A stretch of DNA of 4,692 bases, from IMG/VR virus record IMGVR_UViG_2778261344_000003, positions 1-4,692 of that record. One strand, given 5' to 3'. Below, piece after piece: positions 1 through 4,692 of the stretch. The stretch's first letter is position 1, and every line of letters starts with the position of its first letter. The stretch is from a virus. Lineage: Duplodnaviria > Heunggongvirae > Uroviricota > Caudoviricetes. Made by a program: the position numbers and the translations under genes. The notes below the pieces were generated by a model. The model was given only the letters and a program-made list of their open reading frames with translations, was not told where the DNA came from and did not search any database.

Positions 1-147
1 ATGCTTCCATCAGAAACGATGATCTGGCAGCCTGAGTTCACAGATAAAACACTCTCCAGGAAAACCGGGGCGGTTCAGGTCAGGGTTAACAGCGCCATCA
101 GGGCAAAGCCCATCCAGAGTCTTCGGGTCAGGGTTAAATTCACGGTC

Positions 148-177
148 GGTGCACTTAAGGTGAATAAGTTGTATATT
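148..177. other. Putative att core region (attL or attP core: C/B half-site, overlap, C' half-site), non-lambda specificity
   Basis: Sits about 60-90 bp downstream of the int stop, where lambda has its core. Sequence GCACTTAAGGTGAATAAGTTGTAT; the C'-like half (TAAGTTG) resembles lambda's, but the central part (AGGTGAA) replaces lambda's TTTATAC. Exact core boundaries cannot be set from sequence alone. Confidence 0.4.
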
Positions 178-192
178 TAAAAACTCTTTTAT

Positions 193-205
193 TATCAATG
201 AATTA
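193..205. promoter_or_regulatory. IHF binding site (H'-like) in the P' arm
   Basis: tATCAAtgaaTTA matches the IHF consensus WATCAANNNNTTR and occupies the same position relative to the core and int as the H' site in lambda attP. Confidence 0.45.
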
Positions 206-215
206 ATGTAAGTGG

Positions 216-245
216 GTCATTATTAGTCAAAATAAAATCATTTGT
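216..245. promoter_or_regulatory. Three tandem arm-type Int binding sites (P'1-P'3-like)
   Basis: GGTCATTATT / AGTCAAAAT / AAAATCATTTG are near-identical to the lambda P' arm (GGTCACTATC / AGTCAAAAT / AAAATCATTAT). The int stop codon (238-240) lies within the third site, as in lambda. Fits the lambda-identical N-terminal arm-binding domain of the encoded Int. Confidence 0.55.
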
Positions 246-1311
246 CGATTTCAATTTTGTCCCATTCCCGTCCACGGCTGTCCCTATACCGCGCCGCCAT
301 TAAATCTGATTTATGCCCGAGAAGACGTTGAGCAAACTTATCGCCAATCTGGTTCCGGTATAGCCTCGCTGACAGGCTACGCAGTTCATGGAATGTTGGC
401 GGGTTTCCATCAAATGAGAGTCCAGATGCATTTCTCGCCTTTGTAAAATACTTTGATACTGTTTTCGGGGAAAGCGGATCGTGATGCTTTGATGCGATTA
501 TAGTTTCACTGCTGCTGGCCTCCCTGCATTTCTGTAGTGTATCAGCCAATGAGATATTGAGCGCGTCAATCGTTAGCGTTAGCGGAATGGCGAGTTTAGC
601 CCCTGTTTTACTCTGTTCAATGTGAAGATGGTTGTCGTTTATGTCTGACCATTTCATTCTGCACAAATCGCCGACTCTCTGCCCTGTAACGACGGCCAAA
701 TCCATCGCCAGCCTTAGCCAGATAGGGAGAGGTTCGGCTGCATGGTAAATCTCGACATACTCATTAGCTGTCAGCCTTGAGCGCCTTACTTCTGACTTTG
801 CTGTACGGGTTGCTGTTACCGGATTCGTTGCAACATGCCCCTCGGCTATTGCTTCACGAAAAACGTCAACAAGGGTTGACCTGATTAATTTTGCGGAAGC
901 TGCTTTACCTTCTGCCACGTAGGTGTTTAGCATTGCTGCCACTTCTTTCGTTGATATGTCAGTGAGCGGTTTGTCCGGCAATTTTCTTCGGATTGCCCTG
1001 ATTTTGCTGGCGTAGTCGAGTAGAGTTTTCGGCCTGATCCCTCTTTCGGTGAGGATTCTTTCATATCGGTCAAGCCACACATGAAGAGTGATTGCGTCAC
1101 CGCCTTTAATTCTGTCTATCAGTGATTTGCGTCCGCTGTCTGAGAGTAACTCAATATTGGCCTGTATTGCTTCAGTGATTGCTATCCTCCTGTCTCGGCC
1201 TAATCCAAACTCTTTACCCGTCCTTGGGTCCCTGTAGCAGTAATATCCATTGTTTCTTATATAAAGGTTAGGGGGTAAATCCCGGCGCTCATGACTTCGC
1301 CTTCTTCCCAT
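238..1311 (-). CDS. int: Tyrosine site-specific integrase, lambda Int family (357 aa)
   Basis: ATG at 1311-1309, TGA at 240-238, GAGGA ribosome-binding site 7 nt upstream. The N-terminal ~55 aa (MGRRRSHERRDLPPNLYIRNNGYYCYRDPRTGKEFGLGRDRRIAITEAIQANIEL) match lambda Int as I recall it. Catalytic motifs are present: GQRVGDL (Arg), HELRSLSARLY (His/Arg), LLGHKSDLMAARY (His/Tyr). The core-binding and catalytic regions diverge from lambda. Confidence 0.95.
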   Translation of the reverse strand: MGRRRSHERRDLPPNLYIRNNGYYCYRDPRTGKEFGLGRDRRIAITEAIQANIELLSDSGRKSLIDRIKGGDAITLHVWLDRYERILTERGIRPKTLLDYASKIRAIRRKLPDKPLTDISTKEVAAMLNTYVAEGKAASAKLIRSTLVDVFREAIAEGHVATNPVTATRTAKSEVRRSRLTANEYVEIYHAAEPLPIWLRLAMDLAVVTGQRVGDLCRMKWSDINDNHLHIEQSKTGAKLAIPLTLTIDALNISLADTLQKCREASSSETIIASKHHDPLSPKTVSKYFTKARNASGLSFDGNPPTFHELRSLSARLYRNQIGDKFAQRLLGHKSDLMAARYRDSRGREWDKIEIDK

Positions 1312-1507
1312 TTCTGATCCTCTTCAAAAGGCTACCTGTTACTGGTCGATTTAAGTCAACCTTTACCGCTGATTCGTGGAACAGATACTCTCTGCCATCC
1401 TTAACCGGAGGAGGGAATATCCTGCATTCGCGCACCCATCGACGAACTGTTTCAAGGCTTCTTGGGCGTCGCTGGCGAGCGTTCCACTCCTGAAGTGTCA
1501 AGTACAT
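1289..1507 (-). CDS. xis: Excisionase Xis (72 aa)
   Basis: The protein MYLTLQEWNARQRRPRSLETVRRWVRECRIFPPPVKDGREYLFHESAVKVDLNRPVTG... matches lambda Xis almost exactly. The 3' end overlaps the int start by 23 nt, as in lambda. Confidence 0.93.
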   Translation of the reverse strand: MYLTLQEWNARQRRPRSLETVRRWVRECRIFPPPVKDGREYLFHESAVKVDLNRPVTGSLLKRIRNGKKAKS

Positions 1508-1519
1508 CGCAAAGTCTCC

Positions 1520-1533
1520 GCAATTACACGCAA
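1520..1533 (-). promoter_or_regulatory. cII activator site (TTGC-N6-TTGC) of the pI promoter for int
   Basis: The minus strand reads TTGCGTGTAATTGC just upstream of the xis ATG, matching the lambda pI cII-binding motif in the same position. In lambda the pI transcript starts inside xis, giving int without xis. Confidence 0.6.
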
Positions 1534-1534
1534 G

Positions 1535-1554
1535 AAAAAACCGCCATCAGGCGG
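1535..1554 (-). terminator. Candidate intrinsic terminator (minus strand) between the 55-aa ORF and xis
   Basis: Minus strand CCGCC-TGAT-GGCGG followed by TTTTTT; a 5-bp all-GC stem, 4-nt loop and T6 tract. The stem includes the stop codon of the 55-aa ORF. The stem is short, so strength is uncertain. Confidence 0.35.
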
Positions 1555-1714
1555 CTTGGTGTTCTTTCAGTTCTTCAATTCGAATATTGGTTACGTCTGC
1601 ATGTGCTATCTGCGCCCACAGCATCAAGTGGTCATAGCAGTCGCTGATGTTCTCGGCTTCGATAACTCTGTTGAATGGTTCTCCATTCCATTCACCTGTA
1701 ACTCGGAAGTGCAT
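1547..1714 (-). CDS. Small conserved hypothetical protein (55 aa), not in the supplied ORF track
   Basis: Hand translation of the minus strand: ATG at 1714-1712, TGA at 1549-1547, GGAG 7 nt upstream of the ATG. Product MHFRVTGEWNGEPFNRVIEAENISDCYDHLMLWAQIAHADVTNIRIEELKEHQAA. It sits where lambda has a ~55-codon ORF between xis and ea8.5. Confidence 0.6.
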   Translation of the reverse strand: MHFRVTGEWNGEPFNRVIEAENISDCYDHLMLWAQIAHADVTNIRIEELKEHQAA

Positions 1715-1722
1715 TTATCATC

Positions 1723-1752
1723 TCCATAAAACAAAACTCGCCGTAGCGAGTT
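1723..1752 (-). terminator. Candidate intrinsic terminator (minus strand) downstream of ea8.5
   Basis: Minus strand AACTCGC-tacg-GCGAGTT (7-bp stem, 4-nt loop) followed directly by TTTGTTTTATGG. It lies between the ea8.5 stop (1803) and the start of the 55-aa ORF (1714). Confidence 0.45.
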
Positions 1753-1802
1753 CAGATAAAAGAAATCCCCGCGAGTGCGAGGATAGTTACTTGTTCATAT
1801 TA

Positions 1803-2084
1803 TTAATCGTCAATGTATTTTGAGCATTGTGGGCAATCATCGATCCCACAATACGATTCATATGCATCCTTTATTGCGTCGCGGGCTTCAGTAAGAGTAT
1901 TGAATAAGTTGCAGCTATTATCTTTTTGATATAGGTAAGTTCCTAATTTATAAGCAGAAGAAGCATCATTTCCGCTGTCTAAAATTACATCGTTATGGAT
2001 TCTGCACCTTGCAAGAACTCCTGATCCCATAAGGGTCTGCATAGCCCATTGCTCTTGATCTTCACACAAATCATGAATGCTCAT
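1803..2084 (-). CDS. ea8.5: Ea8.5-like protein (93 aa), Cys-containing putative zinc-binding protein
   Basis: The ORF track starts at a GTG (2102); I place the start at the ATG 2084-2082, which has GAGG 7 nt upstream and yields 93 aa beginning MSIHDLCEDQEQWAMQ. Stop TAA at 1805-1803. Same size and position as lambda Ea8.5, with a C-terminal CPQC motif. Confidence 0.8.
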   Translation of the reverse strand: MSIHDLCEDQEQWAMQTLMGSGVLARCRIHNDVILDSGNDASSAYKLGTYLYQKDNSCNLFNTLTEARDAIKDAYESYCGIDDCPQCSKYIDD

Positions 2085-2183
2085 TTCAACACCTCTCTTC
2101 ACGTTTCACACACGTTAAGATTAACAGTGTTTTTACATGCTTTGGAAGATTTATTTTATAAAAACTCTTTTAATACAAATAGA

Positions 2184-2203
2184 TATAATAGTTCACTATT
2201 ATA
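2184..2203. repeat. Perfect 9-bp inverted repeat with 2-bp spacer (TATAATAGT-tc-ACTATTATA)
   Basis: Seen directly in the sequence. It overlaps the stop codon of the 2199-2996 gene and carries a TATAAT hexamer on both strands. Confidence 0.55.
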
Positions 2204-2996
2204 GCTCCTTTAATCGAGGCGGTTCTGGTAGAGGCATCCAGTGGGTTACACCGCCAATTGGCTCATCGTCGTCGTACTCCAATGCGGTTATATAGAACCC
2301 GTCACGACGAGAATAAGAAATCCCGGACATTACAATGCCATCCGAAACAACAATAATGTCACCCGTTTCTTTCGGCATTCGCTCACTACAGCTTATCCAA
2401 CCATCCGGAGTCACCGGAAGCGAGAACGGCAGCACATCTCTGTGAACAAGTTTTTGCTGTGACAGGTTATCCAGAACTTTCTGTACTGCTGCATCACCGA
2501 ATACACCAAGCGCATCTGCCATAACTCCTACAACCTGATAAGCCTCAGCGCATACCGTGGATAAACCATCCGGAATTACCGGAGAGTTGCCGGGTTCTTT
2601 AATGTGCAAGCGAGGCTCACCATCTTTTGGTTCAGGCCACTGGCGCTCCATGTTGATCTTCAATTTATCTTCCATAGCAGCGGTAATTTCAGCATCGCTG
2701 ATGCCAGCACGGCGCTGTGCATCCCACAACAGGAAATGCATATCAGCCCACTCGCTGAGATCGTCTGGTTCGACTGCGGCTTCCAGAGCCTCTTTTGAGA
2801 GGTGTTTCAGTGGACCAATGGGGCCAACGCAGCCAAATGTGGAGTCAGACCATTTGGCATGCTCGTGGCGAATCAGTTCGCGTTCCAGTGATGCCAGTGC
2901 AATTCGTGCCAGTTCCATTTGTTCGCCACGAGTAAGCCCGTTTTCAAGCGGATTTTTAATGAACAATTCAATACGTTCTTTGGTAATAGTGGGCAT
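2199..2996 (-). CDS. Two-domain phage protein (265 aa): N-terminal MazG-like dATP/dGTP pyrophosphohydrolase domain (DUF550) plus C-terminal DUF551
   Basis: ATG at 2996-2994 with AAGGA 7 nt upstream; TAA at 2201-2199. The N-terminal half has acidic-helix motifs typical of all-alpha NTP pyrophosphohydrolases (KEALEAAVEPDDLSEWADMHFLLWDAQRR; ISDAEITAAMEDKLKINMER). The C-terminus ends in the W...VTHWMPLPEPP pattern I associate with DUF551. Family assignment is from memory, not a search. Confidence 0.65.
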   Translation of the reverse strand: MPTITKERIELFIKNPLENGLTRGEQMELARIALASLERELIRHEHAKWSDSTFGCVGPIGPLKHLSKEALEAAVEPDDLSEWADMHFLLWDAQRRAGISDAEITAAMEDKLKINMERQWPEPKDGEPRLHIKEPGNSPVIPDGLSTVCAEAYQVVGVMADALGVFGDAAVQKVLDNLSQQKLVHRDVLPFSLPVTPDGWISCSERMPKETGDIIVVSDGIVMSGISYSRRDGFYITALEYDDDEPIGGVTHWMPLPEPPRLKEL

Positions 2997-3006
2997 TTGT
3001 TAGTCC

Positions 3007-3762
3007 TTAAAGTGCTAGTTGCAATTGCATTTCAAAGCGGTCGCGTTGTTCACAATACGCAAGAGAACCAGGGCTATTGTGTGCCTCAATCCGTTCTACC
3101 ATTAATGCTGCGCGTGTCTCTTTACTTGCAGGTGCATAAGCCCCAGACCAGGCTTTATCAATACCGATGTTTCGAGCGACGTTCGTACTATCTGCGCTGG
3201 CTAAGGGTAATTTTGTGAATATCAGCGGATTTAACATGCGCAATCCATGTAGTTTCGTAACCGGCTGACCATGCCCATCAACAATGTGACGAATCAGGTC
3301 TTTCATTCTGGCTACCGCAAGAGTTGGGCGCTTTACGTCATAGTCGCCACAACTACCGATAGCCACTCGCGGAAACTCATTGCACAAATGAATAAATCGC
3401 TCGTCACTTTCATTCATGTGCCACACTGGAACGCCAGCTAGTTTTCCGTGAGGCCACTCATTCAGAAGCGCATCATTTTCCTCCTCTCCGCCATCAATAA
3501 CATCCGAGATAATGGCAAAATCGAATCCTGGGTGATTCTTCCAGCGAGCAACAAACTCGTAGTAATCGCTCCAGTCGATTTTGTTTTTGCCAGCTGCTTT
3601 CCAGGCGGTGAATGCACCGTTGTCCAGCGCGAACGACTGACAGTATTCAGCCGCGAGATTGATCTGGCCTGAATGCGCAAAACTGATAAACGCATGTCGC
3701 CCTTTCCATGCTCTCATTGCGCACGTATCAGGAGTAATAGGCCCACCGTGGTAGTGAATCAT
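3007..3762 (-). CDS. Hypothetical protein (251 aa); tentative TGT (tRNA-guanine transglycosylase)/DpdA-like TIM-barrel fold
   Basis: The track ORF (3007-4005) would overlap ea22 by about 240 nt. I place the start at ATG 3762-3760, one nucleotide after the ea22 TGA, with AAGGAG 6 nt upstream. Four collinear motifs resemble TGT catalytic segments with similar spacing: ALDNGAF (cf. LTDSGGF), AIISDVIDGG (cf. IVMIFDECT), RVAIGSCG (cf. RYLMGVG), ADSTNVARN (cf. FDCVMPTRNARN). There is no C-terminal Cys/His zinc cluster. Confidence 0.5.
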   Translation of the reverse strand: MIHYHGGPITPDTCAMRAWKGRHAFISFAHSGQINLAAEYCQSFALDNGAFTAWKAAGKNKIDWSDYYEFVARWKNHPGFDFAIISDVIDGGEEENDALLNEWPHGKLAGVPVWHMNESDERFIHLCNEFPRVAIGSCGDYDVKRPTLAVARMKDLIRHIVDGHGQPVTKLHGLRMLNPLIFTKLPLASADSTNVARNIGIDKAWSGAYAPASKETRAALMVERIEAHNSPGSLAYCEQRDRFEMQLQLAL

Positions 3763-3763
3763 C

Positions 3764-4402
3764 TCACTCTCCTTTGATGCGAATGCCAGCGGCGCGCTCG
3801 GCTTCACTTTGTTCCCAAAACCACTTGTGAAGCTCCATAAGCTTTTCGTCAATCGGTGCATATTTGCGATTAAAGTAGGCCTGAGCATCTTTCTCAGATT
3901 CGTCCGGCAATTCGCCTGGGCCAAACAGTGTGTTATAAATCCATGCCAGTCCGCTTTTAGCGTCGCCAGTTGCCTGCCATTCGATAATCGCAGCCTGCAT
4001 GACAAGAATGTTTTTCCCGATTAACAGGTCCAGTTCTTTGTACCGGTTGCGGATGTATGCATTCTCGCTTTGTAATTTTGCGTTGCGCTTTTCTGAGGCT
4101 TCAAGTAACGCCTGCTTATCGCGTAGCGCTTCTTCCAGTTCAGCAACATGGCATTCACTATCAATAAGGTTGTTCTCTGCTGCTTCCAGCTCAACACGCA
4201 GCTTCCCTACCGTAAGAGCAATATCCTCGTTCTCCTGGTCGCGGCGTTTGATGTATTGCTGGTTTCTTTCCCGTTCATCCAGCAGCGCCAGCACAATCGA
4301 TGGTGTTACCAGCTCATGGAAAAGGTCCGCATCAAATCCCCAGTCGTCATGCATTGCCTGCTCTGCCGCTTCACGCAGTGCCTGAGAGTTAATTTCGCTC
4401 AC
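3764..4402 (-). CDS. ea22: Ea22-like protein (212 aa), mosaic
   Basis: GTG start at 4402-4400 overlapping the upstream TGA (GTGA); TGA stop at 3766-3764. The N-terminal ~75 aa (MSEINSQALREAAEQAMHDDWGFDADLFHELVTPSIV...) and the last residues (GIRIKGE) match lambda Ea22 as I recall it. The central coiled-coil-like segment and C-terminal domain differ. Confidence 0.85.
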   Translation of the reverse strand: MSEINSQALREAAEQAMHDDWGFDADLFHELVTPSIVLALLDERERNQQYIKRRDQENEDIALTVGKLRVELEAAENNLIDSECHVAELEEALRDKQALLEASEKRNAKLQSENAYIRNRYKELDLLIGKNILVMQAAIIEWQATGDAKSGLAWIYNTLFGPGELPDESEKDAQAYFNRKYAPIDEKLMELHKWFWEQSEAERAAGIRIKGE

Positions 4403-4620
4403 TTCGAACCTCTCTGTTTACTGATAAGCTCCAGATCTTCCTGGCAACTTGCACAAGTCCGACAACCCTGAACGGCCAGACGTCTTCGTTCATCTATGGG
4501 ATCGCCACACTCACAACAATGAGTGGCGGATATAGTCTGGTAGTTCAGACGACGCATTTTTATTGCTGTATTGCGCTGTAATTCTTCAATTTCTGATGCT
4601 GAATCAATGATGTCCGCCAT
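4399..4620 (-). CDS. TraR/DksA-family C4 zinc-finger protein (73 aa), lambda orf73-like
   Basis: ATG at 4620-4618, TGA at 4401-4399. The protein MADIIDSASEIEELQRNTAIKMRRLNYQTISATHCCECGDPIDERRRLAVQGCRTCASCQEDLELISKQRGSK has a CxxC-N17-CxxC zinc finger and matches the lambda TraR homolog at this position. Confidence 0.85.
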   Translation of the reverse strand: MADIIDSASEIEELQRNTAIKMRRLNYQTISATHCCECGDPIDERRRLAVQGCRTCASCQEDLELISKQRGSK

Positions 4621-4692
4621 CTTTCATTAATCCCTGAATTGTTGGTTAATACGCTTGAGGGTGAATGCGAATAATAAAAAAGGAGCCTGTAG

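Follow-up and report, generated by a model that had tools for sequence, protein, structure and literature searches.

DpdA is a phage enzyme that exchanges guanine in DNA for a 7-deazaguanine base. In the census of Hutinet et al. 2019 the largest group is made up of 76 phages that have DpdA but lack genes for synthesis of preQ0 or G+, and Supplementary Data 1 of that paper lists BTP1, SPN3UB, SfI, HK106, SEN1, and 7-11 as DpdA-only. DpdA function without phage pathway genes is feasible: plasmid DNA acquired dPreQ0 when the DpdA of phage 9g was expressed by itself in E. coli, with preQ0 supplied by the host, and Salmonella phage 7-11, a DpdA-only phage, carried dADG (50 per 10^6 nucleotides (nt)). 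Our search of the literature found no experimentally tested singleton DpdA of a lambdoid phage. Here we describe gene A, which very probably encodes a lone ("singleton") member of the DpdA family, together with its downstream neighbor, gene B. Both lie in a 4,692-nt stretch of DNA (hereafter the window) from a Caudoviricetes virus (IMG/VR record IMGVR_UViG_2778261344_000003, positions 1 to 4,692), which is identical to positions 1250166-1254857 of E. coli O103:H2 strain 129 (NZ_AP038976.1). The window is the left end of a lambda-like prophage, and every gene in it is on the minus strand. Genes A and B occupy the interval between the homologues of lambda ea22 and ea8.5 and are members of known, catalogued accessory families. 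Phage 7-11 is the only tested phage that has a homologue of gene A.

Gene A and the DpdA family

Gene A encodes 251 amino acids (aa) and runs from an ATG at 3762 to a TAA at 3007. RefSeq labels its product 'hypothetical protein', which is an annotation gap. The protein matches PHROG 887, 'queuine tRNA-ribosyltransferase', with E 3.6e-102. Gene A had no match in Pfam, NCBIfam, PADLOC, or the PDB sequences, and HMMER searches of the same collections with either gene A or its family profiles A3 and A4 gave nothing meaningful. The link to DpdA required profile-profile and fold comparison. Using hhalign, profile A4 (built from 46 diverse representatives having 34-55% identity to gene A) aligned with the experimentally validated DpdA of Pseudomonas phage Iggy at 98.8% probability (E 4.5e-17, 26% identity over 156 columns). 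By tblastn gene A was 92% identical to its counterparts in BTP1 and SPN3UB, 88% to that of Pantoea phage AH07, 67% to that of SfI, 35% to that of HK106, and 26% to Iggy DpdA (E 6e-6).

The hhalign alignment paired the LDNGAF, KLHG, and SADST segments of the gene A family with LDSGAF, KVHG, and SCDSS of Iggy DpdA. Across the 46 representatives D47 (in LDNGAF), H172, S189, D191 (in SADST), and S192 were invariant, H115 and D87 were nearly so, and both H172 and H115 paired with His residues of Iggy DpdA. In bacterial DpdA mutation of the D95/D256 aspartates abolishes activity, and the base is recognized by D130 and H181. F51 of gene A follows D47 by four residues, as F99 follows D95 in the bacterial protein. 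By motif and spacing rather than by superposition, D47 and D191 seem to correspond to the general acid/base and nucleophile aspartates. The AlphaFold2 (AF2) model of gene A (mean predicted local distance difference test score (pLDDT) 75.5, predicted template modeling score 0.76) has alternating strands and helices. The predicted fold is a TIM barrel, the nearest relatives being Cap10, bacterial DpdA, tRNA-guanine transglycosylase (TGT), and archaeosine TGT. A Foldseek search of BFVD with this model returned 25 matches at E <= 1e-3 (best E 7e-15), and all of the named ones were phage queuine tRNA-ribosyltransferases. The same search of the PDB gave only generic TIM barrels and was non-specific.

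Genes A and B are real coding genes. Comparison of gene A with its BTP1 orthologue gave a dN/dS of 0.022, a value that shows strong, long-term purifying selection between E. coli and Salmonella orthologues. The gene A family comprises 808 cluster representatives at E <= 1e-3. Gene A was found in 204 of 5426 complete E. coli genomes (~4%), with at least 80% of its length covered in 201 of the 204, a frequency in keeping with the accessory status proposed in an earlier note that was made from the sequence alone. It is also present in the viable phages BTP1, SfI, AH07, and RothD. In AH07 and RothD it lies in the nin region after the replication genes.

Gene neighborhoods were surveyed in 80 close IMG/VR loci (relatives of at least 86% identity, profile A3), a census that is biased towards Enterobacteriaceae. 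No queC, queD, queE, or folE gene was found within 4 kb of gene A in these loci, and no genes of preQ0 or G+ synthesis or transport were found in either the window or the 28.7-kb host locus (L001). The absence of que and folE genes near gene A fits dependence on the host preQ0 pool. It is the defining feature of the singleton subgroup, and preQ0 is available from E. coli. One locus of the census, L076 (UViG_3300013935_000001), has a Vut_1/YhhQ-family membrane protein gene (3414-4004, Pfam E 3e-9) that overlaps by 4 nt the start of an 89%-identical gene A homologue. YhhQ is a preQ0 transporter family, and this gene is the only such exception among the 80 loci. Outside the census, the temperate Caulobacter phage DMCA (L009 4705-5726), which has an integrase, carries a short QueD-like gene (98 aa, PTPS family) whose last base is also the first base of a gene A homologue of 39% identity.

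No ParB-like (DpdB) gene is present in the window. In nin-region contexts, genes encoding a ParB helix-turn-helix (HTH) domain lie upstream of gene A homologues, either directly or at 1-3 kb, in AH07 (L003 2182-3504) and in eight IMG/VR loci (L049, L078, L084, L087, L089, L090, L091, and L093), with an MT-A70 DNA methyltransferase gene intervening in L087. The AH07 gene, the sole one scanned, was rejected as a DpdB analogue because it has only the ParB HTH domain, gives no PADLOC DpdB match, and is of a kind ordinary in nin regions. A C-terminal partner domain common to Ea22, the AH07 ParB protein, and SfI_0035 was sought and not found.

Gene B, gene order, and mosaicism of the ea22-to-xis interval

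Gene A is embedded in a chain of closely packed genes. The TraR/DksA zinc-finger gene (4399-4620) overlaps the ea22-like gene (212 aa, 3764-4402) at GTGA, the ea22-like gene is joined to gene A by TGA-G-ATG, and 10 nt separate genes A and B. The 3' end of the ea22-like gene reads AAA GGA GAG TGA and is followed by one G and then by the ATG of gene A, with the AAGGAG ribosome-binding site of gene A lying within the last ea22 codons (…AGIRIKGE). The 10-nt gap between A and B (2997-3006) contains the gene B ribosome-binding site, AAGGA, and is near-identical in BTP1. The one-nucleotide TGA-G-ATG spacing recurs in 34 of 73 IMG/VR loci and the 10-nt gap in 45 of 79. No internal promoter-like site was found along the traR-ea22-A-B chain. 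Both the positions that the earlier note gave for the two genes (3007-3762 and 2199-2996) and the tight upstream junction that it described, with the ribosome-binding site inside ea22, are confirmed.

Gene B is EaA-type, encodes 265 aa, and runs from an ATG at 2996 to a TAA at 2199. Its first part (aa 1-41) is an N-module. DUF550 occupies aa 42-137 (nt 2586-2873) and is connected by a linker to DUF551 at aa 199-260 (nt 2217-2402). The match to Pfam PF04447 (E 8e-41, 138.6 bits versus a cut-off of 23) covers profile positions 1-96 of 97, and that to PF04448 (DUF551) has E 7.5e-14 (52.8 bits versus a cut-off of 22). The PGAP/RefSeq annotation splits the gene (L001 14199-14996) into a 'pseudo' N-terminal fragment and a 234-aa coding sequence (CDS), but the open reading frame is continuous, and the full-length 265-aa form is found in many database records as 'DUF550 domain-containing protein'. 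MazG-like all-alpha NTP pyrophosphohydrolases have an acidic metal-binding motif, ExxE…ExxD. In gene B E69-x2-E72 and E82-x2-D85 were invariant across 20 sequences that included BTP1 EaA (47% identity), the acidic residues being spaced more closely than in the classical motif. The AF2 model of gene B was poor (pLDDT 39.7), with a shallow alignment. Pyrophosphohydrolase activity on dATP/dGTP has been shown only for the DUF550 protein of Acinetobacter phage SH-Ab 15497, and by analogy the DUF550 domain of gene B most likely hydrolyzes dATP/dGTP (or aberrant purine deoxynucleoside triphosphates) to the monophosphate.

Genes A and B are frequently found together. The gene order of BTP1 is the same (Ea22-like, DpdA, EaA), and the A-B junction was found in 160 E. 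coli genomes, versus 204 for gene A and 1308 for the gene B N-module. The sequence scored for the N-module (2883-3010) spans the first ~38 codons of gene B, the 10-nt gap, and the 3' end of gene A, and was 93-98% identical in those 1308 genomes, in which the module is fused to different downstream domains (DUF550, DUF551, and others). It is thus a very widespread N-terminal module or linker. The gene following A was EaA-type in ~43 of the 80 IMG/VR loci (~17 of these with DUF550 and ~28 with DUF551) and in the others encoded NinB, RusA, HNH, or something else. The gene preceding A was Ea22-like in ~50 of 73. From these distributions we conclude that A and B are independent accessory genes that often travel together because they share linkers, and no mechanistic coupling need be invoked.

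Lambda has 191 nt without any gene between ea22 (29847-30395) and ea8.5 (29374-29655), in accord with the short gap given in the earlier note. Genes A and B are absent from this site in lambda and HK022. By blastn lambda matches the window only at 215-1849, 3761-3791 (100%, 31 nt), and 4178-4692 (95%). The lambda alignment is near-identical up to ~1790, and from there to 4177 everything differs: the ea8.5 allele, the spacer, genes A and B, and the C-terminal two thirds of ea22. The sole lambda-like exception within this region is the 31-nt island at 3761-3791 (the last eight ea22 codons, TGA, and GAT), and the sequences flanking the island are unrelated to lambda on either side.

Other genomes break the region at different points. 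E. coli UTAK-6 matches the window at 72-3796 (99.7%) and 4361-4692, a comparison showing that the middle of ea22 (3797-4360) was swapped independently. Stx1a_EH2115 matches at 72-1594 (flank, in two overlapping pieces), 2374-3796 (99.4%), and 4361-4692. Salmonella phage BTP1 matches at 1722-1789 (90%, the terminator region), at 2976-3763 (82%; gene A, the 10-nt gap, and the first seven gene B codons), and at 2596-2885 (70%; the DUF550 domain). Inside gene B, HK022 and HK106 match only a conserved 46-nt block at 2373-2418 (98% and 94%, respectively). This block, an intragenic recombination linker, is at the start of the DUF551 domain, and there the Stx1a_EH2115 homology begins, giving a breakpoint at 2373/2374. 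A second linker is the ea22 tail and junction block (3761-3796). In it the upstream joint was placed within 3 nt, as the lambda-type ea22 tail ends at 3761 and the BTP1-type homology of gene A ends at 3763. The earlier note had viewed A and B as a mosaic accessory insertion whose breakpoints alignment with lambda, HK022, and their relatives should define. The mosaic and accessory character stands, and the upstream joint was located, but instead of one two-gene cassette set into a lambda backbone there are several nested breakpoints. As judged from these alignments, the ea22-to-xis interval is a hypervariable slot of nested mosaic segments joined at short conserved linkers, and the locus is a cleanly resolved case of lambdoid mosaicism at such linkers, both between genes and inside a gene. 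In lambda itself (29844-29874; L005 2245-2275) this ea22 tail is likewise found, ribosome-binding site, TGA, and GAT included, although no gene comes after it. Lambda may therefore once have had a translationally coupled gene downstream of ea22 and lost it, the alternative being gain of one by this prophage.

The ea22-like gene is a mosaic. Its N-terminus is lambda-like (4178-4402), its C-terminal domain (~3797-4177) is unrelated to that of lambda, and the protein matches Pfam Ead_Ea22 over aa 2-94 (E 2e-23). In UTAK-6, which is 99.7% identical in this region (L007 3236-3992), ea22 is a shorter, 135-aa variant. The C-terminal domain (aa 101-199, 3806-4102) matches the PADLOC model 'DpdH' with E 7e-36. 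We rejected this match as a functional link to gene A because in BTP1, RothD, and UTAK-6 the Ea22-like gene ahead of gene A lacks the domain. It is also a widespread Ead/Ea22 variant of E. coli prophages, which bears the old name 'enterohemolysin 2'. The RefSeq/PGAP start of ea22 is 16 codons later than the annotated GTG of lambda. This late start and the split of gene B look like annotation artefacts from mosaic genes.

On the other side of gene B an AT-rich spacer (2085-2198) leads to the ea8.5-like gene (1803-2084; Pfam Lambda_ea8_5, E 1e-15), a divergent allele having ~50% nucleotide identity to lambda ea8.5, the ATG of which at 2084 agrees with the RefSeq call (CDS 13803-14084 of L001). 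Two terminator-like hairpins (1734-1784) lie 3' of ea8.5 where lambda homology resumes, followed by the lambda orf55 homologue (1547-1714), xis (1289-1507), and int (238-1311). The 114-bp length, AT-richness (27% GC), and palindrome earlier reported for the spacer were all found, the palindrome being a perfect 8+8 repeat, ATAATAGT-TC-ACTATTAT, at 2185-2202 that overlaps the gene B stop codon. In contrast, the repeated 14-mer reported along with them does not exist. The best direct pair of 14-mers has 3 mismatches, and the best repeat in the spacer is a 16-nt inverted repeat with 2 mismatches (2120-2135/2159-2174). About half of 100 mononucleotide shuffles of the spacer gave equally good repeats, so the repeats carry no detectable signal above chance. 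No promoter-like site, terminator-like site, or Rfam family was found in the spacer, and its RNA fold was unremarkable (z = -1.37). Composition, which had been suggested as a check on the origin of the two genes, does not mark A (48.3% GC) or B (49.5%) as foreign relative to flanks of 46-50%, and the outliers are instead ea8.5 (38.7%) and the spacer.

Upstream of the window the prophage carries exo, bet, gam, kil, cIII, N, and a cI-like repressor. The prophage of strain 129 is degraded and defective: the terminase gene is frameshifted, and insertion sequence elements of the IS3 family are present in exo and beside cII. There are three IS3-family copies in the host locus (L001 10822-12035, 17858-19071, and 25436-26649) that flank or interrupt the prophage, one beside attL (window 1-35), one in exo, and one beside cII. 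These copies may block pL transcription into the A-B region.

Proposed function of gene A and rival explanations

On balance we lean towards a role of gene A in anti-restriction, in which it would be expressed from pL early in lytic growth and would replace G in phage DNA with host preQ0 at a low level. The pL early operon of lambda is antiterminated by N and is repressed in lysogens, and in the host prophage pL and N are upstream of the cassette. We take the ea22/ea8.5 interval to be a hypervariable accessory slot of this leftward early operon in lambdoid phages. Because gene A is chained into the pL operon without an internal promoter-like site, we infer that it is translationally coupled to ea22 and made early in lytic growth rather than in the repressed prophage. 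By analogy with other DpdA and TGT enzymes, D191 would attack C1' of the target deoxyguanosine in double-stranded DNA, with D47 assisting release of guanine. The base then inserted would be a 7-deazaguanine from host queuosine synthesis, namely preQ0, which might subsequently become ADG. Progeny phage DNA would in this way be marked sparsely and at specific motifs, and the marks would weaken restriction in the next host, perhaps also by Dpd-type systems, whose target is DNA without the modification. The earlier note had guessed that the genes at this position serve defense or anti-defense. Anti-defense is reasonable in that characterized members of the family protect phage DNA from restriction. 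Neither gene A nor gene B matches any PADLOC defense model.

Several observations weigh against this proposal. In phage 7-11 only ~0.02% of G was replaced, and in Mycobacterium phage Orion none was. In the analysis of Hutinet et al. 2019 the singletons of gamma-proteobacterial phages form separate clusters, and the authors left open a possible functional divergence. DNA modification at a useful level by these singletons is putative. Bacterial DpdA requires the ATPase DpdB, and no such partner is encoded here. Gene A is ~60 aa shorter than Iggy DpdA (251 versus 312 aa), and HMMER searches with the profiles found neither TGT nor DpdA in Pfam or the PDB. In the alignment with Iggy DpdA, D87 pairs with Ser and D90 with Asp, and the equivalent of D130 is ambiguous. 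Finally, gene A is annotated as frameshifted in the close relative UTAK-6, and the IS3-family element in exo lies between pL and the cassette, which makes expression in strain 129 doubtful.

In a rival explanation gene A has changed its target. It would no longer mark phage DNA but would transfer or remove a 7-deazaguanine on a protein, a tRNA, or a host defense component, for example, as an anti-CBASS or anti-Dpd factor. The invariant D47/H172/D191 set resembles D73/H226/D248 of Cap10, the singletons form their own clusters flagged as possibly diverged in function, and the modification level of 7-11 is very low. However, the profile homology is direct to a validated DNA-modifying phage enzyme (Iggy DpdA), gene A has no tRNA-binding or PUA-type extension, and the genes linked to its relatives are those for QueD and YhhQ, which supply the free base, rather than those for Cap9-like or QueC-like conjugating enzymes or CD-NTases. 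Moreover, the Cap10 and bacterial DpdA structural matches are only 1.4 Z units apart with a model of pLDDT 75. We regard a changed target as unlikely. There is only a slim chance that A and B form a prophage defense module of the lysogenic conversion type, in which A would attack or mark foreign DNA and B would deplete dATP/dGTP of a superinfecting phage. Accessory slots beside int/xis in lambdoid prophages often hold defense genes, DUF550 enzymes destroy dATP/dGTP, and there is the ea22 match to 'DpdH' (E 7e-36). Against these points, that domain is missing from the other Ea22-like genes before gene A and is named in the sources only as Ead/Ea22-like, PADLOC recognizes neither gene, no promoter belonging to the pair was seen, and lysogens repress the pL operon to which A and B are chained. 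Elsewhere gene A resides in the nin region, also part of a lytic operon.

The damage to the prophage raises the question of whether the cassette is merely a functionless relic in strain 129 that is intact only because the prophage decayed recently, with gene A having no selectable activity in lambdoid phages. The IS3-family insertions in exo and beside cII, the frameshifted terminase, the frameshift of gene A in UTAK-6, and the split of gene B by PGAP into a fragment and a shorter CDS would agree with such a relic. The low dN/dS indicates the opposite, as do the near full-length copies of gene A in 201 of the 204 E. coli genomes and its retention by four viable phages, while gene B is a continuous 265-aa frame that has the same form in many records. 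A relic is thus very doubtful.

As this locus shows, lambdoid prophages of pathogenic E. coli commonly carry a singleton DpdA gene, and the gene lies within the best-understood phage early operon. As lambdoid phages are a tractable system, this setting makes the question of what singleton DpdAs do cheap to test. If the anti-restriction proposal is true, restriction evasion by temperate and Shiga-toxin (Stx) phages would depend in part on host queuosine metabolism. More tentatively, and as a possibility that we hold to be rather less than even, the lambda-like temperate phages that infect E. coli and Salmonella, Stx phages among them, may use a minimal 250-aa DpdA, without pathway genes of their own, to write a sparse sequence-specific 7-deazaguanine mark from host queuosine precursors, or may direct it, in the manner of Cap10, at a non-DNA target to disarm a host defense. 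Either alternative would bring deazaguanine biology into the classic lambdoid model, from which no instance of it is known.

Comparison with described systems

Among described relatives of gene B, the DUF550 (MazZ-like) proteins of Z-genome phages belong to a different context, as gene B has no purZ, datZ, or dpoZ nearby and hence is outside the Z-DNA pathway. Like P22 EaA and other DUF550-DUF551 proteins, gene B has both domains at full length, and the domain combination is shuffled among the relatives.

For gene A the more distant relatives are those of bacterial defense systems. Cap10 of type IV CBASS (PDB 9NTN) has an Asp/His/Asp constellation like that of gene A at 9% identity. However, the substrate of Cap10 is a protein (the NDG-modified CD-NTase), and its partners, the QueC-like Cap9 and a CD-NTase, are absent here. 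Bacterial DpdA (Salmonella Montevideo, PDB 7UI4) is 14% identical to gene A, which has counterparts of D95 and D256. The bacterial enzyme is larger (413 aa), partly through the large insertion Ins8, and it depends on the ParB-like ATPase DpdB, whereas no DpdB, DpdC, or restriction genes are found here.

The DpdA1 enzymes of phages that also encode the complete preQ0 pathway (Pseudomonas phage Iggy, Escherichia phage CAjan, and Enterobacteria phage 9g) have a catalytic core homologous to that of gene A, and the Asp/His/Asp motifs are kept. The conserved His of DpdA1, which DpdA2 lacks, has candidate counterparts in H172 and H115. Unlike in those phages, gene A has no adjacent folE, queD, queE, or queC. 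Moreover, Iggy, CAjan, and 9g are virulent phages in which 16-32% of G is replaced, whereas with gene A modification, if any, is expected to be sparse. The closest relatives of gene A are the singleton DpdAs of group 3 of Hutinet et al. 2019 (BTP1 SIU02687, SPN3UB, SfI, HK106, and SEN1), which, like gene A, are found without phage genes for preQ0 or G+ synthesis. Relative to the BTP1-type singletons, the copy described here resides in the lambda/HK022-type int-xis backbone of an E. coli O103:H2 prophage and is joined to a lambda-type ea22 tail.

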